From positions 748,899 to 812,898 of the forward strand of contig CP070704.1 of the NCBI GenBank assembly GCA_020349945.1: a stretch of 64,000 nt of DNA, written 5' to 3'. A program made the position numbers and the translations under genes. Below are positions 10,380 through 62,545 of this stretch, piece by piece. The DNA comes from Deltaproteobacteria bacterium (lineage in GTDB: Bacteria; Desulfobacterota; DSM-4660; Desulfatiglandales; B25-G16). Every line of letters begins with the position of its first letter. Position 1 is the first letter of the stretch. Below the pieces are notes generated by a model. That model searched no databases. It was not told where the DNA came from and saw only the letters and a program-made list of their open reading frames with translations.

Positions 10380-10397
10380 CTGAAGGAAGAAGGGCAT
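10380..10397 (+). repeat. 18-bp direct repeat CTGAAGGAAGAAGGGCAT (copy 1 of 2)
   Basis: Identical 18-mer at 10380-10397 and 23894-23911, in both cases immediately upstream of aminotransferase-homologous sequence. Confidence 0.9.
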
Positions 10398-10727
10398 GAT
10401 GCCAGGGGCAGAAAGGGTGGAGTTCTTCTCTTGTGGGCAGGAAGCCAATATGATGGCGATAAGGCTGAGTCGAATCTTTACCGGAAGGAAGAAGGTCCTC
10501 AGGTTCAGGGAGAATTTTCATGGCTGGGCTGATGAACTGGTGCATGAGGGCTCAGCCGGTATTGTGGCGGATGAGGTCAACGTTATACCCTTTAACGATC
10601 TAAAGCTGGTGGAGAAGGAGCTGGCCACGAAGGAATATGCTGCCCTCTTAACCGAGGGAGGTGGTGCTTATGGAGCGGGCCGAGTTCATATAGATGTTGA
10701 CTTCGTTCGAGCATTACCCGGGCTCAC
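10396..10727 (+). pseudogene. internal fragment of a class III aminotransferase paralog (5'-deleted, 3'-truncated)
   Basis: The translation MMPGAERVEFFSCGQEANMMAIRLSRIFTGRKKVLRFRENFHGWADEL...RALPGL aligns without gaps to residues ~114-224 of the intact gene at 23925-25256. Homology stops near 10727. The rest of the 182-aa ORF (to 10944) has no aminotransferase similarity. Confidence 0.85.
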
Positions 10728-23924: not shown

Positions 23925-25256
23925 ATGGTAACCGGAGATAACTTAGTTGCGGAATACAAGGGAACTCACCCGGGATCACAGAGGTTACATGAACGGGCGG
24001 TGAAGGTATTTGCTGCTCATGGTGCTACCCATACGGTGCGCGTGCTTGATCCCTTTAGGCCTTATTTCACTCATGCTCAGGGTTCGCGAAAATGGGATGT
24101 AGATGGGAACGAATATATAGATTACGTGATGGGACATGGCGGCCTGATATTGGGTCACAGTCATCCTGCAGTGGTACAGGCGGTACAGGAGCAGATGGCC
24201 AAGGGGGCACACTATGGTGAAAGCCACGAGCTGGAACTGAGGTGGGCCGAACTCATAAAGAGTATGATGCCCACAGCAGAAAGAGTAGAGTTCTTTTCTT
24301 GCGGGCAGGAAGCCAATATGATGGCGATAAGGCTAAGCCGAGTCTTTACTGGGAGGAAGAAGATCCTGAGGTTCAAGGAGAATTTCCATGGCTGGGGTGA
24401 TGAATTGGCGCATGAAGGATCAGCCGGTATTGTTGCGGATGAGGTCAACATTATACCGTTTAACGATCTTGTCAAGGTAGAGAGGGAGCTGGCCACGGAG
24501 GAGTATGCCGCCCTTTTGACTGAGGGGGGCGGGGCCTTCGCAGGTGGCCGGGTTCACATAGATACTGACTTCGTTCGGGCGATGCCTGGGCTCGCACACA
24601 AATATGGTACTGTTTGGGTTCTGGATGAGGTAGTCACTGGTTTCCGGGATGCCCCGGGAGGCTGGCAATCTGTAGTAGGTGTCAGGCCTGATTTGACCAC
24701 TCTCGGCAAGTGTGTGAGCGGAGGACTTCCCGGCGGAGCTATAGTGGGTCGAGCTGATATTATGGATGCCTTCGACCCCAAGACCCCCCCTGAGCGACTC
24801 ATCGTACACTCAGGGACTTGGAATGCTAACCCTCTCGTATGTTCAGCCGGCATTGCCGCTTGCGAGCTCTACCAGGATGGTGAACCGCAGAGAAAGGCCG
24901 GTGATTTTGCTGATTACCTTCGGGAGAGAGGGAACAAGGTTCTCAAAGAAAAAGCGATCAATGGTCGTCTCTATAGCAGGACGATAGTGCACCTTTACCT
25001 AGGCCCAATTGACTACGAACCATCTGACGATACTATGCCGCCTACCAAGGATATTGGTAAGATTATGGACCCTGCAAGGCTGCCCGTACGTGCTCGATTA
25101 TGTCTTCACCTGCTTCAGCGGGGCATTGCTACCATGAATGGGGAGATTTTTATCCTTTCAGCGGCACATAGGAAAGAGGATATTGACCAGACAGTACAGG
25201 CACTGAGCGATTCTCTTGATGCTATGATTGCCGAGGGTACCATAGCCCGGCCTTGA
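23925..25256 (+). CDS. class III (PLP-dependent) aminotransferase, glutamate-1-semialdehyde aminomutase-like
   Basis: 443 aa. DYVMGHGGLILGHSHP, VLDEVVTGFR and the PLP-lysine context TLGKCVSGG. Confidence 0.85.
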   Translation: MVTGDNLVAEYKGTHPGSQRLHERAVKVFAAHGATHTVRVLDPFRPYFTHAQGSRKWDVDGNEYIDYVMGHGGLILGHSHPAVVQAVQEQMAKGAHYGESHELELRWAELIKSMMPTAERVEFFSCGQEANMMAIRLSRVFTGRKKILRFKENFHGWGDELAHEGSAGIVADEVNIIPFNDLVKVERELATEEYAALLTEGGGAFAGGRVHIDTDFVRAMPGLAHKYGTVWVLDEVVTGFRDAPGGWQSVVGVRPDLTTLGKCVSGGLPGGAIVGRADIMDAFDPKTPPERLIVHSGTWNANPLVCSAGIAACELYQDGEPQRKAGDFADYLRERGNKVLKEKAINGRLYSRTIVHLYLGPIDYEPSDDTMPPTKDIGKIMDPARLPVRARLCLHLLQRGIATMNGEIFILSAAHRKEDIDQTVQALSDSLDAMIAEGTIARP

Positions 25257-27865: not shown

Positions 27866-29023
27866 TCAAAGCACAGGCCCAAGTGTAGGGATGTCAAACT
27901 CTCGATGGCCCAGAATTTCCGCCTTGGTTACCTTTCCTGATGCGACTTCACGTAGCTCGCCAAATATCTGTTTTCCAACACTCTGGATGGTGCCCTTGCC
28001 ATCTATTATCACGCCTGCATTTATGTCGATATTTTCTTTCATTCGCTCATAGGTGTCGCTGTTGGTAGATACCTTTATCACCGGGACAGAAGGCGTGCCG
28101 ACTGGAGTTCCCCGGCCAGTGGTGAAAGCAATTACCTGCGCTCCAGAGGCTATTAAACCGATGTTAGACTGAACATCAAGGGCGGTGCCATCCATTATTA
28201 CTAAGCCTTTCTTGGATGGCTTCTCGGCATAGTTGACCACCTGCACAATAGTTGTACTACCGCCCTTACGGATACAGCCAAGCGATTTCTCCTCAATAGT
28301 AGTGAGTCCTCCCTCTATGTTCCCCGGTGATGGCTGTGATCCCCGAATATCCATACCCATAGACTTAGCCTTGGCCTCAGCAGCGGAAATTTTTTCATAG
28401 ATATCCCTTTCAACCTCAGCATCTCCAGCTCTTTTTGCCAGGATTTGTTCAGCGCCCAGCATCTCAGTAGTCTCTGTAAATATGACGGTGCCTCCCTCGG
28501 CGACCAATAAATCGGAGGCAACCCCCAATGCCGGGTTAGCCGTAAGCCCCGAAAAGGCATCGGAGCCACCACACTCGAGGCCCAAGATAAGCTCAGAGAT
28601 ATCTATCGATTCACGCTCAAGACTTGATGCCTCTGCCAAGAGCTTTTCAGCTAACCTTATCCCTTCTTCTACACACTTGCTCGTGCCCCCTGCCTCTTGT
28701 ATACTGGTGGCTTCCACTCTCTGACCATCTTTCACCAACTCTCCAGCAATCACATCAGGCGTTATGAGTTCGCAGCCATTTCCGACCAATAATACACCAG
28801 CAACATTCGGATGCCCGGTAAAACCAACCATAGTTCTGATTACCTGCTCCTTATCTTCGCCAACATGCCCGCACCCGCAACCGTGAATGGCACAGACAGT
28901 GCCTGCCACTCTGCCGCTTATCATCTGCGCCACTGTAGAAGCACATACTATGGTGGGGAATACTAATACGTGGTTCCGCGTTCCAGCTCTGCCATTGCTT
29001 CTACGATATCCGAAAAACTTCAT
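27866..29023 (-). CDS. UxaA-family hydro-lyase, large subunit (altronate/galactarate dehydratase C-domain or SuyB-like)
   Basis: MKFFGYRRSNGRAGTRNHVLVFPTIVCAS... is the typical start of the UxaA C-terminal domain. 385 aa. Overlaps the small-subunit gene by 4 nt. Confidence 0.8.
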   Translation of the reverse strand: MKFFGYRRSNGRAGTRNHVLVFPTIVCASTVAQMISGRVAGTVCAIHGCGCGHVGEDKEQVIRTMVGFTGHPNVAGVLLVGNGCELITPDVIAGELVKDGQRVEATSIQEAGGTSKCVEEGIRLAEKLLAEASSLERESIDISELILGLECGGSDAFSGLTANPALGVASDLLVAEGGTVIFTETTEMLGAEQILAKRAGDAEVERDIYEKISAAEAKAKSMGMDIRGSQPSPGNIEGGLTTIEEKSLGCIRKGGSTTIVQVVNYAEKPSKKGLVIMDGTALDVQSNIGLIASGAQVIAFTTGRGTPVGTPSVPVIKVSTNSDTYERMKENIDINAGVIIDGKGTIQSVGKQIFGELREVASGKVTKAEILGHREFDIPTLGPVL

Positions 29024-29310
29024 TGCTTGTCTCCCCTGCCTTTTTGGCTTTCAACATTGTGGACATGAACATGCTCACCATGCCGGATCTGTTTGGTAGC
29101 GAGGCCTATTGCCTCACCATACTTAATTATAGCCCCTCCCTTCTGAATATCCCTCAGGGCAAACTTATGTCCAAAGGGAATATTCTCTAATAACGCAGTA
29201 TCGCTGGTAAAGTCTTCTACCCCAACCTGGACGGAATCGCCCTTGCCGAGTTGGCATAATGCTGTTGCCACATTATCCCTTTTATCTATTAAGATAGCCT
29301 TTTCCTGCAC
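29020..29310 (-). CDS. UxaA-family hydro-lyase, small SAF-domain subunit (SuyA-like)
   Basis: 96 aa. ILIDKRDNVATAL...GHKFALRDIQKGGAIIKYGEAIG is the SAF/altronate dehydratase N-domain. Confidence 0.8.
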   Translation of the reverse strand: MQEKAILIDKRDNVATALCQLGKGDSVQVGVEDFTSDTALLENIPFGHKFALRDIQKGGAIIKYGEAIGLATKQIRHGEHVHVHNVESQKGRGDKQ

Positions 29311-29496
29311 CTCAAAACCTCCTTATCTTGGCTGAATAATCACCTCTCGGACAAGCTAAGGGAAACGGGAGCTGTTTTTCGACGATGGGATAATAGGAGA
29401 GAGACAGGGGTGTGTCAACCATAAAGTATACCCATGATGCTTTAGGAGGAAAGAGGGGTCGCTGGCTGTTCTCGACAGTCATGATCGATTTTTCCG

Positions 29497-29525
29497 TTGA
29501 CAACCATCAGCTGTTAAAATACTAT
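29497..29525 (+). promoter_or_regulatory. candidate sigma70 promoter (copy A)
   Basis: TTGACA (29497-29502), 17-nt spacer, TACTAT (29520-29525). The same architecture is conserved at 38998-39026. Confidence 0.55.
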
Positions 29526-29573
29526 GCCCCCGATTTCTTAACCCTTTAACCATTCGTTCTGGGGCAAGGAGTT

Positions 29574-29618
29574 ATGGTGATTTTCCGGATGATCAGACGA
29601 GTACAGAAGCCTCCATAG
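29574..29618 (+). CDS. candidate leader peptide MVIFRMIRRVQKPP (14 codons, Pro-Pro-stop)
   Basis: ATG preceded by AAGGAG. Conserved in the paralogous leader (MVIFQIIPIQRPP). The two differ in length by exactly one codon, and both end CCT CCA stop. Confidence 0.45.
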   Translation: MVIFRMIRRVQKPP

Positions 29619-29655
29619 GGGAATAGATAGCCTTTTGGGGGCTTTGGTATTTTTG
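29607..29655 (+). terminator. terminator-like hairpin overlapping the uORF stop (candidate attenuator, copy A)
   Basis: 9-bp stem AAGCCTCCA (29607-29615) / TGGGGGCTT (29636-29644) with one G-U pair and a 20-nt loop, followed by GGTATTTTTGG. The 5' arm consists of the last three sense codons of the uORF, ending directly at its stop codon. Confidence 0.4.
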
Positions 29656-29697
29656 GTGGGAGGCCAGAGAGAAACTTGTAAAAAAGGAGGAAGTGAG

Positions 29698-31161
29698 ATG
29701 GAAGCTCAGAAGATGCCAAATGGTGCACTGAGGCCTTGGAATGTTGCTGATTTGCCGGCACCACCAAAGTTCAATTTTCGCAATGCAATGGCAGTGATCG
29801 GGCCAGGGACCATTGCCTTGAGCATGTCAATCGGCAGTGGTGAGTGGTTGATCGGTCCGAGCGCTGCAGTTAGATTTGGGACCTCCGTGATGTGGATCGT
29901 AATCATCTCGGTCTTTTTCCAGGTTTTCCTGAATCAGGAATTTGCCCGATATACCCTCTACACCGGAGAGCCGGTGCTTACCGGTTTCATGAGGACCAAG
30001 CCAGGGCCCAAGCTCTGGGGTTGGCTTTATCCCCTGTTCGGTATGCTCCAGGTAGCATGGCCCGGTTGGGCTGCGGCGGCAGCAGGATGCCTTTTTGCAG
30101 CCCTCTATGGCCATTTGCCGGACGCGGCCGTTGCTGGTGACCGAAGTACAATGCTTGTACTTGGTTATATATTATTCTTTGCCTGCTTAGTGATCGTCCT
30201 GTTCGGGGGGCGTATAGAGCGCATTCTCGAGTGGCTAGCCTGGGGGATGGTTACATGGATTGTCGTCTACCTCCTCATCGTAGATGTATTCTTTGTGCCC
30301 GCAAAGGCGTGGACGGATGTGGCAGGGGGGTTCTTTAAGTTTGGCTCCATTCCCAGGGGGCCCACAGGCGTGGATTGGCCGCTGATGGGGGCCTTTGCAG
30401 CCTACGCCGGGGCAGGAGGTATCGGCAACTGCTGGATCACCAACTGGCTACGGGACAAGGGCTTCGGCATGGGTAAGGTCATCGGGTTCATCCCCAGCGC
30501 AGTGGCAGGTAAGGAGGTCAAGCTTGCCCATGTGGGAACTGTCTTTGAGCCCACCGAGAAGAATATGAGCACCTGGACGCAGTGGTGGAAGTACCTGTGG
30601 GTGGACCAGGGCATCCTCTTCGGTGGAGGGTGTGTCATAGGGATGTACTTGTGCGTGCTGCTCGCCTACGGGGTAATCCCCCATGGTACAGACATAGCTG
30701 GGCTGGCGACTGGTGCATATCAGGCAGATTACTTGATGAAGAGAGTCGGTCGTATCATGTGGTTCCTGACCCTGCTAAACGGATTCTGGGTCCTGTTTGG
30801 CACCCAGCTCAATAACATGGAAGGCCTCACACGGGTGATCACCGATCACATTTGGACTGGTAGTGAGCGGGCGCGCCGCGTGGGCGATGTGCGTTATGTA
30901 TACTACACCGTACTCGCCATTTTTGTCATCTGGGGATGTATAGCCATCAACATGGCTAAGCCGTTTGTTCTGATCATCCTCGGGGCAAATATGGCAGGAT
31001 TCATCTTTGTGTTCTCGGGGGTCCACATCCTGGTGACACAGCATCGCTTCCTGCCCAAGGAGGTGCGGGCCCCCATGTGGAGGCAAGTGATCATAGCCCT
31101 GAGCTGCATCTTCTTTGCCTTCTTCGTGCTTATGAATATCGTGAAACTGATCGGAGGCTAG
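29698..31161 (+). CDS. Nramp-like polytopic membrane permease (non-canonical; substrate unknown), paralog A
   Basis: The ATG at 29698 follows AAGGAGG. GPGTIALSMSIGSGEWL resembles Nramp TM1 but with GSGE instead of DPGN. Highly hydrophobic, ~11-12 predicted TM segments by eye. The TTG at 29635 in the ORF track would run through the leader and is unlikely. Confidence 0.6.
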   Translation: MEAQKMPNGALRPWNVADLPAPPKFNFRNAMAVIGPGTIALSMSIGSGEWLIGPSAAVRFGTSVMWIVIISVFFQVFLNQEFARYTLYTGEPVLTGFMRTKPGPKLWGWLYPLFGMLQVAWPGWAAAAAGCLFAALYGHLPDAAVAGDRSTMLVLGYILFFACLVIVLFGGRIERILEWLAWGMVTWIVVYLLIVDVFFVPAKAWTDVAGGFFKFGSIPRGPTGVDWPLMGAFAAYAGAGGIGNCWITNWLRDKGFGMGKVIGFIPSAVAGKEVKLAHVGTVFEPTEKNMSTWTQWWKYLWVDQGILFGGGCVIGMYLCVLLAYGVIPHGTDIAGLATGAYQADYLMKRVGRIMWFLTLLNGFWVLFGTQLNNMEGLTRVITDHIWTGSERARRVGDVRYVYYTVLAIFVIWGCIAINMAKPFVLIILGANMAGFIFVFSGVHILVTQHRFLPKEVRAPMWRQVIIALSCIFFAFFVLMNIVKLIGG

Positions 31162-31540: not shown

Positions 31541-33433
31541 ATGACTGGGGGATACATGGGAAGGATTGGTTTTGTGGATCTATCCACGGGGGAGATAAGA
31601 GAGGAAAAGCTCGATGAGAGACTTGCACGGAGCTTTATAGGGGGTTATGGGCTTGGGGTGCGAATCCTGTTCGAGCGTCAGAGAGGAGGAATAGACCCCT
31701 TGGGGCCGGAGAACATCCTCGGCTTTACTGCTGGGCCACTGACCGGGACACAGAGCCCGACCGGTGGTAGATATATGGCGGTATGTAAATCGCCGATTAC
31801 TGGCGGTTGGGGAGATGCCAACTCGGGTGGATACTTTGGCAGTGAGTTGAAGTCTGCAGGCTGGGATGCGATCTTCATTTCCGGCATTGCGGCCTCACCT
31901 CAGTATCTTGTAGTGACAGAGGATGAACTGGAGTTGAGAGACGCATCTCATCTGTGGGGGCGAGATACCGTTGATACTGAGGAAATACTGCGCGAGGATC
32001 TGGGGATCTCCAAACTCAGAGTCGCCTGTATCGGTCAGGCCTCAGAGAGGCGGTCGCTGATCAGCGGCATTGTCAATGATAAGGGGCGTATAGCAGCTCG
32101 CTCGGGTGTTGGTGCGGTCATGGGCTCAAAGCGGCTCAAGGCTTTGGCTGTGTACGGAGGGAAAAAGGTCGCTGTAAGCGATAAGAAAAGGCTTGACCAG
32201 CTGCGCAAGAGTTTCATAGAGGAGCTTCGTGAATCAAAGGGCTTCCCTCGGTTACTTATGGATTATGGAACTTGTGGTCTGACCGATGGACTGGTGGCAG
32301 GGGGAGCAACCCCTATAAAAAACTGGCTTCTTGCGGGCAAGCAAGCCTTCCCGACCCTGGATAAGATAGCCGACTTCGATACTGTTATTCAGCACCAGGT
32401 AAAGCGATATGGTTGTTCCAATTGCCCTATTGTCTGCGGAGGTATCTTCGAGGTCTCTCAGGGGGCCTATCCCGTGGCAGAGGTTCATAAACCAGAATAT
32501 GAAACCATAGCTGCATTCGGCACCATGTGCATGAACGATGACCTGATATCCATTATCAAGCTGAATGATATGTGTAACCGAAGCGGCTTGGATACCATCT
32601 CGGCAGGAAGTGTCCTCGCGTTTGCCATGGAATGCTTTGAAGAAGGGATTATCACCGAAAGGGATACCGATGGGATCAGGCTCACCTGGGGGAACGCAGA
32701 GGCCATGATCGCCATGCTCGAGAAGATCATCCGCCGTGAGGGCTTTGGTGACATTCTGGCTGACGGGGTTAAGGCCGCTGCCCGTGAGATCGGGGAAGGC
32801 GCTCAGGAGTGCGCTATCCACGTTGGAGGACAAGAACCAGGACTGCACAACGCATTGTTCCTGCCGGGCCGGGGCACGGGGTTTGTCTGCGATCCCACCC
32901 CCGGCCGCCACACAGCTGCTGCTCCTGCGGCTCGTATAGATGCAGGTTCGCCAGCCATTATTGCCCCTTACCCGGAATTGCAGTTCCGGGGTTACGAACG
33001 CTATGAATATAAGAGCAAAGGGCCTGCCAGCGCTACAGCCTCTTGCTACTGGCAGGTGGGGGCCTGCGCAGGAGTTTGCCTCTTTCCGGTTATCTTCTTT
33101 GGTAATTACCCGCTTCTAGATTTTCTTAACGCTGTCACCGGATGGGATATGGATGTCACTGAGGCCCTGGAAACGGGGACAAGGATTCAGACGTTGAGGC
33201 AAGCCTTTAACCTTAGAGAAGGGATCGAGCCACGTGAGATAAAGCTGCCTTCCCGCATGGCCGGGGTCCCTCCTAAGAGTGATGGTCCACTTGCAGGCAT
33301 CACAATAGACATAGACACGCTAGCCTCTGAATACCGTAAGGCAATGGGATGGGATCCAGACACGGGCGACCCAACCGAGGCCACCCTTCGGCGTCTGGGA
33401 TTAAAAGAGCTAGCAGAAACCTATTGGAGGTAA
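31541..33433 (+). CDS. aldehyde:ferredoxin oxidoreductase family (tungstopterin AOR)
   Basis: 630 aa. GRIGFVDLSTGEI...GGYGLG N-domain, EYETIAAFG, CNRSGLDTIS and the Fe-S motif CSNCPIVCGG. Confidence 0.9.
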   Translation: MTGGYMGRIGFVDLSTGEIREEKLDERLARSFIGGYGLGVRILFERQRGGIDPLGPENILGFTAGPLTGTQSPTGGRYMAVCKSPITGGWGDANSGGYFGSELKSAGWDAIFISGIAASPQYLVVTEDELELRDASHLWGRDTVDTEEILREDLGISKLRVACIGQASERRSLISGIVNDKGRIAARSGVGAVMGSKRLKALAVYGGKKVAVSDKKRLDQLRKSFIEELRESKGFPRLLMDYGTCGLTDGLVAGGATPIKNWLLAGKQAFPTLDKIADFDTVIQHQVKRYGCSNCPIVCGGIFEVSQGAYPVAEVHKPEYETIAAFGTMCMNDDLISIIKLNDMCNRSGLDTISAGSVLAFAMECFEEGIITERDTDGIRLTWGNAEAMIAMLEKIIRREGFGDILADGVKAAAREIGEGAQECAIHVGGQEPGLHNALFLPGRGTGFVCDPTPGRHTAAAPAARIDAGSPAIIAPYPELQFRGYERYEYKSKGPASATASCYWQVGACAGVCLFPVIFFGNYPLLDFLNAVTGWDMDVTEALETGTRIQTLRQAFNLREGIEPREIKLPSRMAGVPPKSDGPLAGITIDIDTLASEYRKAMGWDPDTGDPTEATLRRLGLKELAETYWR

Positions 33434-33505
33434 ATAAAACACTCAGGGTCAGGATAGACTCTAGAGAAAATAAAAAGCGGTCGCACAGGATAAGGAGGGA
33501 GGATC

Positions 33506-34876
33506 ATGGCAAATGAGAAGACAGCATTAGCAGTAGATCCTTATGCGCGCAAGGTGGAATATATCCTCGCGCCACCTGACACCTTTTGGAAGAGGATAAA
33601 GTTCCTGGGCCCAGCGCTCATCTTAGCAGGGTCTATCGTCGGGTCAGGCGAGCTCATCGCTACTACCACGCTTGGCGCAAAGGTAGGGTTCTACGCCCTT
33701 TGGATGATCATCATCAGTTGCCTGATCAAGGTCGTTATACAGGAAGAGCTGGGCCGGTATACCATCGGCTCTGGAGAAACGGCCCTGCGCGCCTTTGATC
33801 ATATCCCAGGCCGCCTCCACGTGTCGTGGGTTGTCTGGTTTTGGATCATTATGACCATTGCGGTTACCTTTCAGGCAGGTGGCATTGTAGGAGGGGTTGG
33901 GCAGGCCTTGCATTTGGCCTGGCCGCAGCTTTCTGCGAACTGGTGGACTGTCATCATCACGGCCGTTGGCATCGGACTGACGGTGCGGGGCTACTATGGT
34001 ATGGTCGAGAGGATAGCGGTGTTCATGGTGGCTGTCTTCACCTTCATCACTGTAATCTGTGCCTTCTTGGTCCAGTGGACCCCACACGCGTTTTCCCTGG
34101 CAGACTTCGTAGAAGGCTTGACACTGAAGCTCCCCAAGGGCGGGGCAGGAATTGCCTTCGCCGTCTTCGGCATCACCGGTGTGGGTGCCACGGAGCTTGT
34201 GATGTACCCGTACTGGGCTGTGGAGAAGGGGTACGCCCGCTTCGCTGGGCCGACGGAAGAGACAGAGGCCTGGCTCGAACGAGCCAAGGGCTGGGTCCGA
34301 GTGATGCACGTAGACATTATAGTAGCGATGATCGTTTTTACTATCGCCACCATTGCCTTCTACATCCTCGGTGCAGCAGTGCTGCATGGTATGGAGAAAG
34401 TCCCTCAGGGATATGATATGGTCGCCACACTCTCTAACATGTACACGGAGTCGATCGGCAGCTGGGCATTCTACCTCTTCCTTGTAGGCGCGTTTTTTGT
34501 GCTCTTTTCCACCTTCTTCGTGTATATTGCCTCGTTGGCTCGGATGGCGACGGACTGCCTGAAGGTCCTGCGCCTGATCGACTTCGAAGACTACAGGGCA
34601 CGCATGCGGTGGATCGGGTTCTTCTGCATTATCTTTCCCGTGCTGTACTGTATCCTCTACGTCAAGCTGGCGGCACCAGTGTACATGGTGCTGATCGGTG
34701 GGGTAGCCCAGGCCTCGTTCCTTCCGATCATCGGCTTCTCCGCCCTTTACCTCCGCTACAAGCGAATGGACAAACGCCTGCTCCCGGGCCGAGCCATTGA
34801 TATACTGATGTGGATCTGCGCTGTTCTCATCACCATCATCGGGGTCTATGCGGTGTATCAGAAATTCGCCGGCTGA
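33506..34876 (+). CDS. Nramp-like polytopic membrane permease (third, more divergent paralog)
   Basis: 456 aa. LGPALILAGSIVGSGELIATT has the same GSGE variant of the TM1 motif. Hydrophobic throughout. Confidence 0.6.
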   Translation: MANEKTALAVDPYARKVEYILAPPDTFWKRIKFLGPALILAGSIVGSGELIATTTLGAKVGFYALWMIIISCLIKVVIQEELGRYTIGSGETALRAFDHIPGRLHVSWVVWFWIIMTIAVTFQAGGIVGGVGQALHLAWPQLSANWWTVIITAVGIGLTVRGYYGMVERIAVFMVAVFTFITVICAFLVQWTPHAFSLADFVEGLTLKLPKGGAGIAFAVFGITGVGATELVMYPYWAVEKGYARFAGPTEETEAWLERAKGWVRVMHVDIIVAMIVFTIATIAFYILGAAVLHGMEKVPQGYDMVATLSNMYTESIGSWAFYLFLVGAFFVLFSTFFVYIASLARMATDCLKVLRLIDFEDYRARMRWIGFFCIIFPVLYCILYVKLAAPVYMVLIGGVAQASFLPIIGFSALYLRYKRMDKRLLPGRAIDILMWICAVLITIIGVYAVYQKFAG

Positions 34877-34981
34877 GAGAGGCAGCAATCAAAGAAATGC
34901 ATGGGAGCAAAGGGAGCCTTTTTGTTCGTCTTGGTTATAACCATATCATAAAGGCGATCTAACGAGAGGGGTGTCATATAA

Positions 34982-36901
34982 TTGAAACATCTACTTGGGC
35001 CACTTACCGTAAAGGGCATGGAGCTTCGAAACAGACTTGTTATGCCGCCTATGGCGACGAATTTTGCTTCAGAGGATGGGGCAGTAACCAAACAAAGCAT
35101 AGGCTATTACAGAGAGCGCGCTAAAGGTGGGGCAGCATTGATTATCGTGGAGATGAGCTATGTCCACCTAACTGGTAAGGCCTTTCCCTGTATGCTTGGT
35201 GTTTACGACGATAAATTTCTTCCGGGGCTCAACGAACTTGCTGAGGCAATTAAATCATACGGGGCTGGGGCTGCATTGCAGATAGGGCACGCCGGGCGAC
35301 AAACACGCTCTGAAATCTCCGGACATCGAATACTGGCCCCGTCTGCTATACCGTCAAGGGGTACGGCAGAGGTTCCTAAGGAGATGTCAGCAGGGGAAAT
35401 CGTGGAGATTACACATGCATTTGGAAATGCCGCACTGCGCGCAAAGAACGCCGGTTTTGATGCAGTGGAACTTCACGGGACTCATGGCTATTTGCTCAAC
35501 CAATTTCTATCTCCATATACAAATAAAAGAACAGATATATATGGGGGTAGTTTCGAAAACAGACTGAGATTTCCTCTAGAGGTAATCCAGGAGGTAAGAT
35601 CAAAAGCGGGGGAAGACTATCCATTAATCTTCAGACTGTGCGCCAATGAATATATTGAAGGCGATGAGGCCATTACCCTTGATGTGGCCAAAAGGATAGC
35701 CCCGAGACTGGTTGAGGCAGGCATAGATATACTTCACATAACCGGTGGAATGGGCGAGACAAGAGATCATGTGATCCAACCCTTATATTACGGCCATGGC
35801 TATCATGTATACCTTGCAGAGGGGATAAAGCGGGTTGTGGGTAGTATTCCCGTTATTACAGCAGGAAGCATTACAGATCCTTATATGGCTGAGAAGATAC
35901 TGGAGGATGAAAAGGCAGACTTGATTGCTATGGGACGGGGGCTTATTGCAGACCCCATGTTTCCCAACAAGATAAAAGAGGGCAAGATCAAAGAAATCAG
36001 ACGCTGTATCCGTTGCAATGAATGCATCGGTCGCTTCAGGAGAGGCTACCGCATTAGCTGCAGTGTTAATCCCACAGTGGGCAAGGAGACACATAGTGAA
36101 CTGAGGCCAGCAAAAGAGCCAAGGAGAGTTCTCATAGCGGGTGCGGGTCCGGCGGGTATGGAAGCAGCAAGAATCCTCTCCTTAAGGGGACATGAAGTAA
36201 CCCTGTGTGAAAAAGGTGATGAGCCTGGAGGACTTCTTCGGATAACTACGGTTCCAGGGTGGAAAAAGGATATTCTTGCTCTTGTTGATTGGCTAAAGAC
36301 CCAATTAGAGAAGAGTAGCGTAACTGTCCACCTTAATACCGAGGTCACCCCTGAATACATCACTAAATTCGGTCCGGATGTCCTCGTAGTAGCTACAGGA
36401 TCCACGCCCAGGAAACCAAATATTCCCGGGATAGAATCAGCTATAACAGCTATAGATGTCTTAGAGGGTGTGGCTGTGGGAGACAGGGTAGTCATCTGTG
36501 GAGGAGGGCTTGTTGGCTGTGAGATAGCATGGTATCTCGCTGAGCTGAACAAAAGGGTAACTATCGTCGAAATGCTTGATGAGGTGGCTGCGGATATGGA
36601 GACTGGAACCAGAACAGCGATATTGAAGGAACTTCGAGAACATGAGGCAGATATAATCTGCAATCTAAGGATGGAAGAGATTATTCCAGGTAAGGGCATA
36701 CTCGGTGTTGACAAAAAATTGACCAGGAGAGAAATAGAGGGAGATACAGTAGTATTAGCGATGGGTTTTGACCCAAATCGCGCGTTATTTGATGGAAAAA
36801 ATAAATCATATGAGGTGTATGGTATTGGTGACGCCAAAGAGCCACGGCGCATCATTGATGCGATACGAGAGGCAGATCATATAGCCCGCTTTGGGATATA
36901 A
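34982..36901 (+). CDS. OYE-like NADH:flavin oxidoreductase fused to an FAD/NAD(P)-binding domain (2,4-dienoyl-CoA reductase-like)
   Basis: TTG start. N-terminal LRNRLVMPPMATN...GAALIIVE TIM-barrel, Cys cluster CIRCNECIGRFRRGYRISC, Rossmann motif VLIAGAGPAGMEAA. Confidence 0.85.
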   Translation: MKHLLGPLTVKGMELRNRLVMPPMATNFASEDGAVTKQSIGYYRERAKGGAALIIVEMSYVHLTGKAFPCMLGVYDDKFLPGLNELAEAIKSYGAGAALQIGHAGRQTRSEISGHRILAPSAIPSRGTAEVPKEMSAGEIVEITHAFGNAALRAKNAGFDAVELHGTHGYLLNQFLSPYTNKRTDIYGGSFENRLRFPLEVIQEVRSKAGEDYPLIFRLCANEYIEGDEAITLDVAKRIAPRLVEAGIDILHITGGMGETRDHVIQPLYYGHGYHVYLAEGIKRVVGSIPVITAGSITDPYMAEKILEDEKADLIAMGRGLIADPMFPNKIKEGKIKEIRRCIRCNECIGRFRRGYRISCSVNPTVGKETHSELRPAKEPRRVLIAGAGPAGMEAARILSLRGHEVTLCEKGDEPGGLLRITTVPGWKKDILALVDWLKTQLEKSSVTVHLNTEVTPEYITKFGPDVLVVATGSTPRKPNIPGIESAITAIDVLEGVAVGDRVVICGGGLVGCEIAWYLAELNKRVTIVEMLDEVAADMETGTRTAILKELREHEADIICNLRMEEIIPGKGILGVDKKLTRREIEGDTVVLAMGFDPNRALFDGKNKSYEVYGIGDAKEPRRIIDAIREADHIARFGI

Positions 36902-36942
36902 AGGCTGTGCCTCCCTCAGCAGGGCACCATCACAAAAAAAGC

Positions 36943-36971
36943 TTGACTGCAAATTGGTGAGGTAATATAAA
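36943..36971 (+). promoter_or_regulatory. candidate sigma70 promoter upstream of the tandem-cyclase gene
   Basis: TTGACT (36943-36948), 17-nt spacer, TATAAA (36966-36971), leaving a ~190-nt leader. Confidence 0.35.
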
Positions 36972-37167
36972 GCTATGGGATTTTCGTTGATTGTTCCTGA
37001 CACAGGGGCCTGAATTTTTTCAAAGGACGCGATCTTTTTTGGGAAAGGAGGTGGGGGAAAAGCTGTTAAGGGGCCTTGACTGTGTTGGGGCACGTGTTTG
37101 TGTGAGCAGATATCTTTCCTAGTTTCGGGGAGATACCTGTTCGTAAACAATGAAAGGAGGAACGAGC

Positions 37168-38811
37168 ATGAGCCGAACTAAAAGAACTAATCTTATCATT
37201 TCGCTGGGCATTTTGTTTGTGTTCATCCTCGCCGGCTCAGGTTATGCGTATAAGGTGATCGACCTTTCGCAAAAAGTTGAGAATGGGATGCCTGCCTGGG
37301 CTGGCAAGTGGGAAGGGATGAGCATGTGGGCCGGGGCCAAGACTCAGATGGAGTGCTACGATAAGGTGGGGAATTTTTACGGTCACGACCTGAAGTTCAC
37401 GGAGCACACCGGCACGCACATGGATAGCCCCGCTCACAACGCTTACGGACTCTGGCGACTTGATCAGATCCCGATCGACAAGTTCCATGGCAAGTGCATA
37501 ATCATGGATATGCGGCCCTGGGTGAAGGATCGGGACGGCTATGAGGTCAGCTTGGCCGATGTGAAGGCATGGGAGCAGAAGACAGGCTGCGATCTGATGA
37601 GGGATGCGGCACGGTCGATGATCTTCATGTGGACCGGCTGGGACAAGTATTGGAACGACTACATCGCGGGGAAAAACGACCGCGCTATGGGGTATCGCTT
37701 CCCTGGCATTATGGAGGATGCGGCCAAGTACTTCGCCGATTGCCGGATCAAGGGCTTCGGGTTTGATACCCTCTCCATCGATATCTACAAGAGGGTGATG
37801 GAGGGCAAGCCGGTCGCTCACCAGGCGATCTTTTCCAACAACACCTGGGTCATCGAGAACATCAAGATCGATCCCTCGGTGGCGGACAAGTGGGCCTACG
37901 CCGTACTGGCCCCCATGAAGATCTATAAAGGCTCCGGTGCCCCCGTCCGGGTGTTTGTGCTGGATGACACCAGGGCCAAGGGTATGGCCGCTTCACTGGC
38001 CTCTATGAAGGCCTTGGAGAACAAATTCATGGCGGCCCCCATGTACGATCTGGCCAACTATATCGAGAACGGGATGCACATCTGGATGGGTGTGTTTGGC
38101 ACCAACCAGGTCGGATTGGGCAATCTTAATGATTTCCGGGGCATCTATCCCTGGATCGACTATCGGGACGGTGGCTTTTACGGGCAGCAGATTTTCTGCA
38201 ACGAGCACACCGGCACCCATACGGATTCCCCCGCCCACCGTCGGGAGGGAGCGAAGTGGACCATCGATAAGGTCGCTTTGAATCACTTCGTGGCCCCCTG
38301 CCTGGTGGTGAATGCCTCCGGATATGGCCCGGAAGAGGGCGACTGGGACTTCACCATGAGCATGTTCCGGGATTGGATGAAGAAGCACCCGGGTCTGACC
38401 GTCAACAAGGGCGATATCGTCTGCTTCTCACAGAATATGGTTCACAAGTGGGCCCTCCACAACAAAGGCATCCACCGCGAGTGGGTTACCACTCACTTCC
38501 CGGGCATTGGTGGGGATGTAGCCAAGTACCTGAAGGATAAGGGCGTTGTGGGCGCGCTCACGGATGTCACCAGCATTGATGCCGCCATGCACTGCCAGAG
38601 GGGCAAAGGCACCGACCAGGAAAACAATATCACGCATGTGACCCTGTTCAGTAATGGCATCTTTGTTACGGAGAATGTCGGGGGAGACCTGCAGCAGGCC
38701 GCCAATTCCAAGGGTCTGGCCTTCGTCATGCCCTGCATGAATACCAAGAATGGATCCGGTGGCCATAGCCGCATCTGGTACTTCGAGGGCCTGGATATCC
38801 CCATCGAATAG
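37168..38811 (+). CDS. exported protein with two tandem cyclase / kynurenine-formamidase-like domains
   Basis: The ATG at 37168 follows AAGGAGG. Sec-type signal MSRTKRTNLIISLGILFVFILAGSGYA. Two copies of the HxGTHxDxPxH motif (EHTGTHMDSPAH and EHTGTHTDSPAH). Confidence 0.8.
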   Translation: MSRTKRTNLIISLGILFVFILAGSGYAYKVIDLSQKVENGMPAWAGKWEGMSMWAGAKTQMECYDKVGNFYGHDLKFTEHTGTHMDSPAHNAYGLWRLDQIPIDKFHGKCIIMDMRPWVKDRDGYEVSLADVKAWEQKTGCDLMRDAARSMIFMWTGWDKYWNDYIAGKNDRAMGYRFPGIMEDAAKYFADCRIKGFGFDTLSIDIYKRVMEGKPVAHQAIFSNNTWVIENIKIDPSVADKWAYAVLAPMKIYKGSGAPVRVFVLDDTRAKGMAASLASMKALENKFMAAPMYDLANYIENGMHIWMGVFGTNQVGLGNLNDFRGIYPWIDYRDGGFYGQQIFCNEHTGTHTDSPAHRREGAKWTIDKVALNHFVAPCLVVNASGYGPEEGDWDFTMSMFRDWMKKHPGLTVNKGDIVCFSQNMVHKWALHNKGIHREWVTTHFPGIGGDVAKYLKDKGVVGALTDVTSIDAAMHCQRGKGTDQENNITHVTLFSNGIFVTENVGGDLQQAANSKGLAFVMPCMNTKNGSGGHSRIWYFEGLDIPIE

Positions 38812-38997: not shown

Positions 38998-39026
38998 TTG
39001 ACAATCATCAGATATTAAAATAATAT
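38998..39026 (+). promoter_or_regulatory. candidate sigma70 promoter (copy B)
   Basis: TTGACA (38998-39003), 17-nt spacer, TAATAT (39021-39026). Confidence 0.55.
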
Positions 39027-39074: not shown

Positions 39075-39116
39075 ATGGTGATTTTCCAGATCATCCCAAT
39101 ACAAAGGCCTCCATAA
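39075..39116 (+). CDS. candidate leader peptide MVIFQIIPIQRPP (13 codons, Pro-Pro-stop)
   Basis: Positional and sequence homolog of the uORF at 29574-29618. Its SD is weaker (AATGAG). Confidence 0.4.
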   Translation: MVIFQIIPIQRPP

Positions 39117-39150
39117 GGGAATATATAACCTTTGGAGGCTTTTTTATTTC
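39105..39150 (+). terminator. terminator-like hairpin overlapping the uORF stop (candidate attenuator, copy B)
   Basis: 9-bp stem AGGCCTCCA (39105-39113) / TGGAGGCTT (39133-39141) with one G-U pair and a 19-nt loop, running into TTTTTTATTTC. Confidence 0.5.
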
Positions 39151-39256
39151 TGGTGGTCGGCCAAAATACAGTCCGTGCCAGTGGGGGGAGCTGGTAATAG
39201 TCTATCGGTTCGGCCAGGATCTGGGACAGAAAAACCTTTAGAAAGGAGGGCGTGAG

Positions 39257-40720
39257 ATGGAAGCTTCAAAGATGCCAAGTGGTGCACTGAGTCCTTGGAA
39301 TGTCGCCGATTTACCGGCACCACCGACGTTCAATTTTCGTAATGTCATGGCGGTGATCGGCCCGGGAACCATTGCCTTGAGCATGTCAATCGGCAGTGGC
39401 GAGTGGCTGATGGGTCCGAGCGCTACAGTAAAGTATGGGACCGCCGTGATGTGGATCGTTATCGTATCGGTATTTTTCCAGGTTTTCCTCAATCAGGAAT
39501 TTGCCCGGTACACCCTCTACACCGGAGAGCCGGTGCTGACCGGTTTCATGAGGACCAAGCCAGGACCAAAGCTCTGGGGTTGGCTTTATCCCCTGCTTGC
39601 TATCCTGCATGTAGGATGGCCTGGCTGGGCAGCGGCAGCGGCAGCATGCCTTTTTGGAGCCCTGTATGGCCACTTGCCTGATGCGGCTGTGGCTGCTGAC
39701 CGGAGTACCATGCTTACCCTTGGTTACATACTGTTCTTCGGGTGTATAGTCATCGTCCTTTTTGGTGGCCGCATTGAGCGCATTCTCGAGTTCGTAGCCT
39801 GGGGCATGGTTATATGGATTGTCGTCTACCTCCTGATCGTTGACATATTCTTTGTGCCCGGAAAGGCGTGGACGGATGTGGCAGGGGGGTTCTTGAAGTT
39901 TGGCTCCATTCCCAGGGGGCCCACAGGTGTGGATTGGGCCCTGATGGGTGCCTTTGCAGCTTACTCCGGGGCAGGAGGTATCGGCAACTGCTGGATCACT
40001 AACTGGCTGCGGGACAAGGGCTTCGGCATGGGGAAGGTCATTGGGTTCATCCCCAGCGCGATTGCAGGGAAAGAGGTGAAGCTCGCCCATGTGGGAAGTG
40101 TCTTTGAGCCCAACGAGAAGAACATGAGCGGCTGGAGACAGTGGTGGAAGTATCTGTGGATGGATCAGGGTGTCCTCTTCGGCATCGGGTGCGTGGTAGG
40201 GATGTACCTGTGCGTAGTGTGCGCCTACGGGATGATCCCCCATGGTACAGACATAACTGGGCTGGCGGCCGGTGCATACCAGGCGGATTACCTGGCGAAA
40301 AGGATCGGTCGTGCCATGTGGTTCCTGACCTTGATAAACGGATTCTGGATCCTGTTTGGTACCCAGCTTAGTATTACCGATGGCTTCACGCGGGTAGTTA
40401 CCGACCACGTATGGGCCTGTAGTGAGCGTATGCGCCGCCTGGGCGATGTGCGGTATATCTATTATGGTATATTCATCATCTTTGTCATCTGGGGATGTAT
40501 TGCCATCAACCTGGCGAAACCGTTCGTCCTGCTGGTCATCGGGGCGAATATGGCAGCATTCATCTTCGTGGTCTCAGGGGTCCACATTCTGGTGGTGCAA
40601 CATCTCTTCCTGCCCAGGGAGGTGCGAGCCCCCGTGTGGAGGCAGGTGATCGTAGCCCTGTCCTGCATCTTCTTTGGCTTTTTCGTGCTTATGAATATAG
40701 TGAAACTTCTCGGAGGCTAG
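39257..40720 (+). CDS. Nramp-like polytopic membrane permease, paralog B
   Basis: 487 aa, gap-free alignment to paralog A. SD AAGGAGG lies before the ATG. Confidence 0.6.
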   Translation: MEASKMPSGALSPWNVADLPAPPTFNFRNVMAVIGPGTIALSMSIGSGEWLMGPSATVKYGTAVMWIVIVSVFFQVFLNQEFARYTLYTGEPVLTGFMRTKPGPKLWGWLYPLLAILHVGWPGWAAAAAACLFGALYGHLPDAAVAADRSTMLTLGYILFFGCIVIVLFGGRIERILEFVAWGMVIWIVVYLLIVDIFFVPGKAWTDVAGGFLKFGSIPRGPTGVDWALMGAFAAYSGAGGIGNCWITNWLRDKGFGMGKVIGFIPSAIAGKEVKLAHVGSVFEPNEKNMSGWRQWWKYLWMDQGVLFGIGCVVGMYLCVVCAYGMIPHGTDITGLAAGAYQADYLAKRIGRAMWFLTLINGFWILFGTQLSITDGFTRVVTDHVWACSERMRRLGDVRYIYYGIFIIFVIWGCIAINLAKPFVLLVIGANMAAFIFVVSGVHILVVQHLFLPREVRAPVWRQVIVALSCIFFGFFVLMNIVKLLGG

Positions 40721-41590: not shown

Positions 41591-43687
41591 TTATAATCTT
41601 ATACTACATGAAACCCCGCCGACAAAGCCCGTTTCAGGAGAGGGGAAGAAACCTATCCTTGACCCAAAGGGGTATCCGCCAATGCCGCCGAATTCCTCGT
41701 ATTCTTTATCCAGGATATTGTTTACCCCCAAGAAGGCTGAGAAATCCCCCCATGTATCCTCATATGCATAAGATAGTTTTGCGTCCCATACACCGTATCC
41801 TGGAAGTTTGTCGAATGTGTTTGCCAGGTCATTCGCTAAGAATCTCTTCCCGACAAATCGAGCTCGATTCCATAAGGTAAAACCGTAGCCCAAATCTATG
41901 TTTGCTTCAATGTACCCCAGGTGTCTTGGGGTAATAGGAAGGTCCGATCCTTTAAAGGGGCCCTCTTCTATCTCTGTGTCCACAACTGTATAACTTCCAA
42001 AAAGTGTTGTCCTCGGAATGATACTTGATTCTGCCGATATTTCTATTCCTCTGTGTACTACTTCATCAAAGTTCTCATTCTGCCCAAAGGCAAAGGTCCC
42101 CACACTGGGTGGCCTAAATAGTATCTCATCCTTGACTGTCATGTGGTAGAGTGATATTCCACCACTGAATTTGGGTCCAAACCGCGTTTTCATTCCTACC
42201 TCGAAGTTTTGTCCCTTCTCTGGGCCAAGTTCTGGTGTGAAACCGAAGAAGCCTGTTAGTTCGTCCCTGTTTGGAAACCTGAAGGTCTTGGCATAACTGA
42301 AATACCCACTCATATTGTCGGTGAAAAGGTATGTGACACTTGCCTTAGGGCTGAGTCTATCAAAATCCCTCCCGCCTTCTGTTCTCGAAGTCGTTCCGCT
42401 TACCAAGTTTTCAGTTTGGCTGGAGAAATCGAAGGCTGCTCGGTCGAACCTTATCCCTGCACCCAGAATAATTCTATCAGTGATAGAAAAATCGTCATGG
42501 AGGTAAACTCCTAAGAGCTCCCTGTCGTACTTTGTAGCCTGCCTCTGGATAAAGGGGTAAAGGGGGTCAGGAAAGTCAGAAAAACTTGTTGATCCGACTT
42601 CTTCCTTGAGCAAATCTATGCCCAATATAGCCTTGTTTTTCCTACCAAATATTTCATATGTAGATGTATATCTCAATGAAAGGCTGTAGTCATCTTCTTC
42701 ATCGTCAATTATCGTAGAACCAGAACCAGGAATTGAGGTAAGGGAATCACCCTCGTTGTTGTTGTAGTAAAAAAGCAGAGAGAGTTTATTGTACTCATCA
42801 GGGATCATATCGGCGCCGAGGACTGTATTAAATTGGTCTGTCTCCCTTTTATCTTCACCGGCCACTACTGAACCCCTCCTACCAACTGCCTGTATTTCAT
42901 TCTTCGTCAGGCTCCCTGGAAGGTCTCTGTCGTCATTATGGTACCCAGCTTTCAGCGTTAGTTCGAGTGCAGGAGTCAACTGGTAGGAGAGCTTGCCTGT
43001 CCAGTCCCGTGCTGTAAAGTTAGAGTTATCTCTGTATCCATCCTCTTCACTGCGGCTTCCGAACAGAAAATAGCTAGACCTTTGTGTGGAACCCTGTACT
43101 GTTGCTGTCTGACCGTATGTCTGCCAAGTTCCCGCATCTGCTCCCAGCTCAATAATAGGTCTGCCCAGGCCCTTTTTAGTGATGATGTTTATTACAGCAG
43201 CCATGGCGGAATCGCCATAAATGGCCGTCGCTGGTCCTCGAACTACCTCTATTCTATCTATGTTATGCAAGGGGATTAGTGCCCAATCCGGATTGGATGA
43301 ATCCGCTTCATTAGCTTTCCAGCCATCTACAAGCACTAAGGTTCTTCCGCCATTGCCCCCTCCGTTGTTAAACCCGCGCGCCTCCACAGTGATTCCGGTT
43401 GGCGTGGAACCAGAAGTGTTTGTCACCATAATCCCAGCCTCTCCTCTTAGAAGTTCTGTTACTTCCTCAGCTGTTGATCTTTCTATGTCCTCCGCGGTTA
43501 TCACGGTTACATTAGCCGGAATGCGAATGATCTCTTCCCTCTCTCTACTGGCAACAACGACTATTTCCTCTAATACTATTACCTCTTTCTGCTCCGGCAT
43601 TTCCTTAGAGGCTTGTGCCAAGACAAGACCATTCAACGGAGCAAGTATTAAGATAAATAGCCTCATTACAAGGATTTTCCTTTTCAT
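41591..43687 (-). CDS. TonB-dependent outer-membrane receptor (cobalamin/BtuB-like by riboswitch context)
   Basis: Signal peptide, TonB-box-like EEIVVVASR, plug domain (IRIPANVTVITAEDIE...GITVEARGF) and a long beta-barrel region. A cobalamin riboswitch lies upstream. Confidence 0.85.
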   Translation of the reverse strand: MKRKILVMRLFILILAPLNGLVLAQASKEMPEQKEVIVLEEIVVVASREREEIIRIPANVTVITAEDIERSTAEEVTELLRGEAGIMVTNTSGSTPTGITVEARGFNNGGGNGGRTLVLVDGWKANEADSSNPDWALIPLHNIDRIEVVRGPATAIYGDSAMAAVINIITKKGLGRPIIELGADAGTWQTYGQTATVQGSTQRSSYFLFGSRSEEDGYRDNSNFTARDWTGKLSYQLTPALELTLKAGYHNDDRDLPGSLTKNEIQAVGRRGSVVAGEDKRETDQFNTVLGADMIPDEYNKLSLLFYYNNNEGDSLTSIPGSGSTIIDDEEDDYSLSLRYTSTYEIFGRKNKAILGIDLLKEEVGSTSFSDFPDPLYPFIQRQATKYDRELLGVYLHDDFSITDRIILGAGIRFDRAAFDFSSQTENLVSGTTSRTEGGRDFDRLSPKASVTYLFTDNMSGYFSYAKTFRFPNRDELTGFFGFTPELGPEKGQNFEVGMKTRFGPKFSGGISLYHMTVKDEILFRPPSVGTFAFGQNENFDEVVHRGIEISAESSIIPRTTLFGSYTVVDTEIEEGPFKGSDLPITPRHLGYIEANIDLGYGFTLWNRARFVGKRFLANDLANTFDKLPGYGVWDAKLSYAYEDTWGDFSAFLGVNNILDKEYEEFGGIGGYPFGSRIGFFPSPETGFVGGVSCSIRL

Positions 43688-43889: not shown

Positions 43890-43948
43890 CCCCTTTTTAT
43901 CCTCAAGATCTTTAGGCTAAACCCAGTCCACGGAGGTTAAGCCTTACA

Positions 43949-44111
43949 TTCAGGCAGGTCTTCTGACTCTCGGATCACTCTACTTGCTGCGCCTTCCCAT
44001 TCGGCCTCGCCCAGAACAGTGGCATTTTGCAACTTTCGTCCCCGATTACAGCGGCGGGCCCATCCCCGATTTTAACAGGGTTCCCTATTAAGCTGCTATC
44101 GAGCACCTGAA
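43949..44111 (-). promoter_or_regulatory. cobalamin (B12) riboswitch
   Basis: The minus strand reads ...AATAGGGAACCCTGTTAAAATCGGGGATGGGCCCGCCGCTGTAATC...GCCACTG...GGGAAGGC...AGTCAGAAGACCTGCCTGAA. It has the conserved core, the B12 box GCCACTG and P1 closure TTCAGG/CCTGAA. Confidence 0.85.
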
Positions 44112-44277
44112 CATAGGAGGATTTCTAGCGAAATGATAGATGAAAGTCAAGGGAAATTCTCAGCACATGATAATCCTTCGACTGAGAACTTCTGGCTAAT
44201 CAGAACTTTTCTTCCCCTATAGGCAACTCATATACAGAAAAATGCACTTAGCTGCTCTATCGCAGTTCTTTGTGTGT

Positions 44278-62182: not shown

Positions 62183-62300
62183 CAATCAGTTATAATTACA
62201 CGTTAGAGGTAACCCATTCAATTGTAAGTCCGCCTGCAGCGGACTGGGTTAGCCCATTTTCCTTGTAGACGAAGGCCAAGGCTTTTAATCTTTGATCTAC

Positions 62301-62487: not shown

Positions 62488-62545
62488 TGGTAATATTTTG
62501 TCGGTACTGAGCCGGCTGTTTAAGGATCAAGGAAACAGGGTGCAG

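Follow-up and report, generated by a model that had tools for sequence, protein, structure and literature searches.

Does a short open reading frame (ORF) in the leader of an Nramp-like permease gene decide, through the ribosome that translates it, whether the permease is transcribed? The question is raised by a 64,000-nt stretch of Deltaproteobacteria bacterium contig CP070704.1, analysed over its whole length and called the 64-kb window here; all coordinates are positions in this window. Two leaders in the window, copy A and copy B, and their homologues in relatives (given as L-numbers) were compared. Each of the two carries a promoter, a short upstream ORF (uORF) and a terminator-like hairpin whose 5' arm overlaps the end of the uORF. 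This sequence anatomy and its conservation were observed. On comparative evidence of modest strength, the element was tentatively read as a direct-occlusion (pyrBI-like), ribosome-dependent transcription attenuator in the operon leader of the Nramp-like permease, an assignment that we put somewhat short of an even chance.

The near-consensus copy A promoter (TTGACA-17 nt-TACTAT, 29497-29525, + strand; matches 10/12) has a counterpart in all homologous leaders, and transcription would start at about 29532-29534. The purine-rich ribosome-binding region of the uORF, CTGGGGCAAGGAG (29560-29571, +), includes AAGGAG at 29566-29571, and the CTGGRG motif 5' of this AAGGAG is the portion in common with distant leaders. 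The uORF, MVIFRMIRRVQKPP-stop (29574-29618, +), runs over 14 sense codons from the ATG at 29574 to the TAG at 29616-29618, and homologous uORFs were found in 13 distinct leaders. Its K-P-P codons, with the Pro codons CCT at 29610-29612 and CCA at 29613-29615, form the 5' arm of the hairpin (29606-29615). Within the stem, AAGCCTCCA (29607-29615) is paired with TGGGGGCTT (29636-29644), including one G.U pair. Folding in ViennaRNA produced a terminator-like hairpin at 29606-29645 (+) with an outer stem of 10 bp (29606-29615/29636-29645), an inner stem of 4 bp (29617-29620/29631-29634) and a loop at 29621-29630; the stop codon is located between the outer and inner stems. The fold energy of -21.4 kcal/mol (z = -2.9) was equalled by 1 of 200 dinucleotide shuffles. 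The first three T of the T-rich tail TTTGGTATTTTT (29643-29654, +) also close the stem, and T makes up 7 of the 10 bases past the stem (4-9 of 10 across leaders). Only ~30 nt separate the T-rich tail from the Shine-Dalgarno (SD) sequence of the permease, so that transcription of permease A must come by read-through of the hairpin.

The original prediction, made on copy A, had described a 14-codon uORF ending in Pro-Pro-stop and a 9-bp stem with AAG CCT CCA as its 5' arm, followed by a T-rich tract. Both were found in place, and the stem was lengthened to 10 bp by ViennaRNA. The AAGGAG that it had named as the SD of the uORF is also present, but the 2 nt between it and the ATG are too few for good initiation; the gap to an in-frame GTG at 29577 is 5 nt. 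A small alternative hairpin at 29629-29643, flagged by a scan, was rejected as the functional terminator because copy B is without a counterpart of it. Upstream of the leader, a divergent near-consensus promoter (TTGACA-17-TATTAT, matches 11/12, 29390-29418, - strand) precedes a SAF-domain gene (29020-29310, -) and a UxaA-like dehydratase gene (27866-29023, -); its -35 box begins 79 nt from the start of the -35 box of the leader promoter.

Copy B, 9.5 kb downstream and before a paralogous permease, is a second whole arrangement with the same layout. Its promoter (TTGACA-17 nt-TAATAT, 38998-39026, +) is followed by the uORF MVIFQIIPIQRPP-stop (39075-39116, +; TAA at 39114-39116) and by a hairpin with the T-tract TTTTTTATTT (39103-39149, +; the tract at 39140-39149). 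The outer stem was assigned to 39103-39113/39133-39143 and the inner stem to 39115-39118/39129-39132. The hairpin (39103-39143) was folded at -23.2 kcal/mol (z = -3.9), a value equalled by 0 of 200 shuffles. The tail of copy B has the canonical form; copy A and L021 have interrupted tails. A further G-rich segment, of 60-90 nt, is found between the T-rich tail and the permease SD in copy B (39150-39245) and at equivalent places in L002, L016, L021 and L034, and copy-A-type leaders (A, L001, L022, L033/L036) are without it.

Homologous leaders were gathered by protein searches and contig look-ups, finally yielding 13 distinct leaders (A, L001, B, L034, L021, L022 and L033/L036; L018, L025, L028 and L049; L002/L003 and L016/L035) from metagenomes or metagenome-assembled genomes named Desulfobacterales or Desulfobacteraceae. 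Searching the contig collection with a single-protein query returned no matches, and an alignment query added only L036 and L049 as relevant loci. All 13 leaders are directly 5' of, and in the same orientation as, one clade of Nramp-like permeases with at least 73% identity to permease A. A covariance model (R1) built from the leaders was searched across 259 kb, producing 11 matches at E <= 4e-15 and weak partial matches on two leaders from which the hairpin is deleted. Over the same 259 kb, R1 gave no matches on permease homologues of ~50% identity or elsewhere, and no free-standing copies. The upstream regions of the ~50%-identity homologues are unrelated to the uORF/hairpin leader. As the R1 matches are confined to the known leaders and these upstream regions are unrelated, the element is specific to this permease clade. 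For one 74%-identity homologue (L053) no element was detectable in the only 157 nt of upstream sequence at hand. The ~50%-identity homologues L005-L008, L012, L038-L040, L042, L043, L046 and L050 were seen to have a different conserved motif, the extended SD-like GGAAAGGAGGTGGTG, ~90-110 nt 5' of the permease start. This motif has no obvious ORF at proper spacing and is often located 3' of a small membrane-protein gene ending in ...LSPILQRGWQG*; it may be a separate leader element.

The promoter was kept in 13 of 13 leaders, and the hairpin with its T-rich tail in 11 of 13 (-17 to -24 kcal/mol, 4-9 T in the next 10 nt). Among the 11 hairpin leaders the stem core GCCTCC/GGAGGC is invariant and the loops are variable. 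The terminator hairpin was the sole consensus structure returned by RNAalifold for these 11 leaders, with 95.5% of the stem cells paired. No conserved antiterminator or aptamer was found by RNAalifold in the 11 leaders, and its consensus held no conserved protein-binding element or RAT-like (ribonucleic antiterminator-like) element outside the stem. Leaders folded after truncation before the 3' arm differed from leader to leader and shared no alternative pairing; in some of these folds the uORF SD was paired with the CCUCC arm, inconsistently. Scanning the window against Rfam at gathering thresholds identified only two cobalamin riboswitches and a tRNA, all elsewhere, and in E-value mode both leaders gave only sub-threshold, hairpin-like matches at chance level. 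The best of these was Phe_leader on copy B, with 23 bits against a gathering score of 55.

The start codon of the uORF was found 32-36 nt 5' of the GCCTCC core in 11 of 11 hairpin leaders, after a CTGGRG or AAGGAG purine block. Between subclades the spacer from uORF start to hairpin is unrelated in sequence, and the start position is nonetheless kept. In the other two leaders, L002/L003 and L016/L035, the homologous start codon is kept and ~38 nt including the hairpin are deleted, with Pro-Pro-stop also lost. Their uORFs are 12-13 codons long and now enter the T-run.

The fate of Pro-Pro-stop differs between subclades. (K/R)-P-P-stop is located at the arm in seven of the 13 leaders (A, L001, B, L034, L021, L022, L033/L036) and is absent from L002, L016, L018, L025, L028 and L049. 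Within the seven, the stop varies between TAG and TAA, the ATG start is replaced by GTG in L022, and copy A differs from L001 by an in-frame 3-nt indel. The peptide pattern MVIFxMIPxQ(K/R)PP recurs in these leaders, and copy A is without the Pro8 that is conserved in the others. The seven are closely related, with almost no variation over the whole arm-and-loop sequence GCCTCCATARGGGAA, and the TAG/TAA swap also turns a G.U pair of the inner stem into A-U. Given the arm GCCTCCATAG, a start codon in the Pro-Pro-stop frame without an earlier stop was estimated by the author to occur in about 1 in 5 cases for a single lineage. As CCTCC is the invariant core of the stem, the two Pro codons may simply follow from the stem sequence.

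In L018, L025, L028 and L049 the hairpin, tail and start codon are kept, and the uORF (34-55 codons) reads through the hairpin with GCCTCC in the other two frames. In all four of these distant leaders no stop codon interrupts the ATG frame before the far end of the terminator, and the other frames are mostly closed. In dinucleotide shuffles the chance of an open frame was 0.23-0.41 per distant leader and ~0.01-0.04 jointly. L028 and L049 share MKRFPRKT, followed by -2 and +2 nt indels, yet each has an ORF of 102 nt that closes with the aligned TAA. The peptides of the distant leaders are unrelated to the Pro-Pro-stop peptides. No run of regulatory codons was found in the leader peptides (MVIFRMIRRVQKPP, MVIFQIIPIQRPP, MKRFPRKT...), the sole repeat being the terminal Pro-Pro of one subclade. 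On the leaders compared, Pro-Pro-stop is a subclade feature that does not define the family. The design in common appears to be a leader ORF that would place the ribosome on the 5' arm of the terminator-like hairpin, whether translation ends at the arm or goes on through the hairpin. The original prediction had placed a ribosome over this 5' arm at Pro-Pro-stop. The layout that it proposed recurs in 11 leaders and the start codon in 13 of 13, but Pro-Pro-stop is confined to the seven closest relatives, which by the prediction's own test counts partly against it.

How such a leader could work was considered on the basis of this arrangement. We infer that the uORF would be translated, that transcription would terminate at the hairpin and that a ribosome would block hairpin formation. 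The strong sigma-70-type promoter would give ~170 nt (copy A) or ~230 nt (copy B) of transcript before the permease start, with the short ORF starting ~40 nt into the transcript. The stable hairpin with its T-rich tail, an intrinsic terminator in form, would follow 32-36 nt beyond the ORF start. A ribosome close behind RNA polymerase would occupy or melt the 5' arm as the 3' arm and the U-tract are made; with the 5' arm occupied no terminator fold would form, and the permease would be transcribed. If the uORF were untranslated or the ribosome lagged, the hairpin would form and transcription would stop near 29650-29656 in copy A. In the two window copies and their closest relatives, Pro-Pro-stop falls exactly at the end of the 5' arm, where the ribosome would stay longer on the arm, as bond formation between the two prolines and release at Pro-stop are both slow. 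Termination is poor where a peptide ends in Pro-Pro, and Pro-Pro-stop could be a subclade-specific means of parking the ribosome. In the distant relatives the uORF would instead carry the ribosome through the whole terminator. Candidate input signals would be coupling or translation capacity, proline or elongation factor P (EF-P) status, or a ligand.

Several published results bear on this arrangement. Folding of a hairpin needs ~10-15 nt of free RNA between the ribosomal A site and the hairpin (PMC4824070). Here the A-site stop codon would be 10 nt inside the hairpin, so that a terminating ribosome must prevent folding. In E. coli, termination at tR2 fell from ~90% to <10% when a stop codon 28 bp upstream of this terminator was brought to within 5 bp, and translation was needed for the effect (PMC4824070). 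Occupancy of a leader stop codon by the ribosome alters the outcome of attenuation (PMC5373646). Ribosomes also stall at consecutive prolines, an effect that alters intrinsic termination in vivo (PMC5021804).

A number of observations weigh against ribosome occlusion. Covariation in the stem, to which the original prediction had looked for support, was weak: pairing is largely kept, but 46 of 500 shuffles reached the observed score, the core is invariant and compensatory changes are scarce (2 of 10 pairs with double changes, one closing pair occurring as AU, GU and GC). Two lineages deleted the hairpin while keeping the uORF. SD quality is uneven: copy A has a strong SD that is too near the ATG, and the SDs of copy B, L034, L028 and L049 are weak. 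A generic terminator scan of 40 kb of genome was not enriched over shuffles, so the use of intrinsic terminators in this sulfate-reducer-type organism is not demonstrated by the scan. No purifying selection on the peptide was detected, the uORF frame having a synonymous fraction of 0.18 and the other two frames 0.17 and 0.30. Such points lend themselves to a different explanation, doubtful and still to be taken seriously, in which the hairpin serves as a leader terminator, or in RNA stability or processing, and has only an incidental uORF before it. The hairpin would then be constitutive and leaky, or under the control of a trans-acting factor (an antiterminator protein, a small RNA (sRNA) or a CsrA-like protein at GGA-rich sites). 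The hairpin is conserved far better than the content of the uORF, Pro-Pro-stop is absent in four of the 11 hairpin leaders, and the lack of codon-level selection and the uneven SD point the same way. The invariant CCTCC/GGAGG core could account for the Pro codons, and chance alone often leaves a given ATG with an ORF of at least 12 codons. An incidental uORF does not readily explain a start codon fixed 32-36 nt from the hairpin across subclades with unrelated spacers, or ORFs that are open through the terminator in four of four distant leaders. Nor was a regulator gene found among the flanking genes scanned against Pfam, or a conserved protein-binding or RAT-like element outside the stem.

Ribosome occlusion as favoured here needs no special stall. 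The original prediction had rested on a pause at Pro-Pro-stop. Taken as a specific model, this would make the pause itself a regulated and essential step that senses proline or EF-P status, or is stabilised by a small molecule acting on the nascent peptide in the manner of TnaC, the stall setting the level of read-through; this is improbable. Pro-Pro-stop was kept in seven leaders despite the TAG/TAA swap, the ATG/GTG swap and an in-frame indel, the peptide pattern MVIF-x-MIP-x-Q-K/R-PP recurs, and the context is generally held to be poor for termination. Stalls at consecutive prolines are moreover able to alter intrinsic termination in vivo (PMC5021804). The conservation says little, as the seven leaders are close relatives with a nearly invariant arm and loop, and the TAG/TAA swap is equally explained by the G.U to A-U change in the inner stem. 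The distant leaders keep the hairpin and the uORF start without Pro-Pro-stop, the peptide has no excess of synonymous change, and copy A has lost the otherwise conserved Pro8. Any ribosome terminating here should already mask the arm (PMC4824070), and a special stall is not required. In a stricter and slightly less probable form of the same idea, MVIFxMIPxQ(K/R)PP-stop would be a true arrest peptide whose release is tuned by a small molecule, perhaps the permease substrate, or by EF-P or proline status, with the stalled ribosome masking the intrinsic terminator. If true, this would be a TnaC-like sensor wired to Rho-independent termination and controlling an Nramp-like permease for an organic substrate in Desulfobacterales. 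Quite unlikely is a further possibility, that promoter and hairpin make up an independent sRNA of ~120 nt, possibly with a dual function through the peptide of 13-14 aa, the permease being expressed by leakage or, in copy-B-type leaders, from another promoter. The layout, a strong promoter with a terminator ~120 nt downstream, is that of an sRNA gene, and there are known attenuator-derived sRNAs and trans-acting leader peptides such as rnTrpL and peTrpL (PMC6614838, PMC7298713). The element is nevertheless always directly 5' of the same permease clade in the same orientation, copy A has no room for a separate permease promoter, and the covariance model found no free-standing copies in the 259 kb. 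Least probable, and very much so, is a riboswitch whose metabolite-binding aptamer would govern the terminator. A leader terminator before a transporter gene is typical riboswitch anatomy, and other genes of the Nramp family are known riboswitch targets. Against this, the leaders matched no Rfam family at gathering thresholds and only at chance level in E-value mode. Across subclades the ~75 nt from transcription start to hairpin share no structure and little sequence, and they are too short and too variable for an aptamer.

Of the known systems, the pyrBI and pyrE attenuators of E. coli are the most similar in layout. In these a leader ORF enters or crosses an intrinsic terminator, an antiterminator hairpin is dispensable, and read-through needs a ribosome close behind RNA polymerase; the pyr leader hairpin has been described as a terminator whose formation is prevented by the ribosome (PMC5021804). 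As in pyrBI, the leader ORF here ends in or spans the hairpin, with the stop between the stems in seven leaders and the ORF extending over hairpin and T-rich tail in four, and it is the four distant leaders that match the pyrBI layout closely. In sequence the leaders are unrelated to it, however, and the downstream gene encodes an Nramp-like permease rather than a pyrimidine biosynthesis enzyme. The leaders studied here also differ in having no conserved U-rich, UTP-sensitive or homopolymer-rich pause region between uORF start and hairpin, and in seven of them the ORF stops inside the hairpin at Pro-Pro-stop. The trpL, hisL, pheL and ivbL attenuators likewise have a short, SD-led leader ORF before an intrinsic terminator in an operon 5' leader, and in such classical attenuators the position of the ribosome decides termination (PMC5373646). 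Unlike them, the present leaders have no run of regulatory codons and no conserved 2:3 antiterminator. In trp-type leaders a ribosome at the stop codon favours termination, whereas here it would prevent it.

The original prediction had also compared the leader with MgtL and TnaC. The targets of TnaC and MgtL are Rho-dependent termination or alternative stem-loops. With these and with MgtP the leader peptides of the Pro-Pro-stop subclade share a proline at or near the C-terminus, and a slow step could hold the ribosome and alter downstream transcription. The likeness went no further than analogy: here the target would be an intrinsic terminator masked directly, proline at the stop is not family-wide, and no conserved sensor residues could be shown. 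The layout is not of the Rho type, as the stop is directly followed by a stable hairpin and T-rich tail and not by an unstructured, C-rich spacer resembling a Rho utilization (rut) site. In systems of the vmlR and toiL type, stalling redirects RNA folding or blocks Rho. The vmlR-type antibiotic-resistance leaders and toiL of topAI have a very short uORF before a terminator and a stalled ribosome that turns the gene on (PMC9226507, PMC12121999), as would be the case here. The present leaders differ from them in having no conserved alternative fold and no antibiotic link, and in preceding a putative uptake permease in a catabolic gene cluster. By this comparison the element is not a member of any described leader family, though it would work like a pyrBI-type attenuator.

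The permease A gene (29685-31161, +) was assigned an SD, AGGAGG, at 29685-29690 and an ORF at 29698-31161 (487 aa), with its ATG at 29698 and not 29699. The protein was placed in the Nramp family by NCBIfam model NF037982 (1.6e-53) and gave no Pfam match at E <= 0.001. Permease B (39257-40720, +), also of 487 aa, is 84% identical to permease A. An in-frame TTG at 29635 was rejected as the start of permease A, as copy B is without such an extension and the SD and ATG (29685-29700) are conserved. This TTG, inside the 3' arm of the hairpin, lengthens permease A by 21 codons in a mechanical ORF list (508 against 487 aa) and is an annotation trap. The L034 permease homologue (P0012) is annotated 28 codons too short.

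Gene neighbours of the permease clade vary by locus. In the window (31541-38811) they include an aldehyde:ferredoxin oxidoreductase, a second Nramp-like gene (33506-34876), an OYE/enoate-reductase-like flavoenzyme and a double cyclase-domain protein. URO-D-like methyltransferase and B12-binding genes were found next to L028, and DJ-1/PfpI and Zn-alcohol dehydrogenases next to L018 and L025. These neighbours suggest a substrate that is organic rather than a metal. Scanning the flanking ORFs against Pfam identified no local regulator gene. In the 553-aa double-cyclase gene the HxGTHxDxPxH cyclase motif is duplicated (37375-37437 and 38176-38238). The two cobalamin riboswitches of the window (RF00174) are at 43936-44125 (-) and 62289-62500 (+), with 112.7 and 86.8 bits, respectively, and the first precedes a TonB-dependent receptor gene (41591-43687, -). 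A direct repeat of 300 nt with 83% identity was found at 10390-10689 and 24258-24557, the second copy inside a class-III aminotransferase ORF (23925-25256); it probably represents paralogous genes.

The element is of note as a compact, conserved leader that is duplicated in one genome and tied to an uncharacterised transporter clade, and its practical value is limited until the signal is identified. If confirmed, it would be a clean and very compact ribosome-occlusion attenuator, consisting of a promoter, a uORF of ~13 codons and a terminator whose stem encloses the stop codon. The occurrence among close relatives of a stop inside the hairpin after Pro-Pro and of an ORF through the hairpin would offer a natural experiment on the share of the termination pause in anti-termination. 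Such an attenuator would be an example from the poorly studied Desulfobacterales, controlling a clade of Nramp-related permeases.

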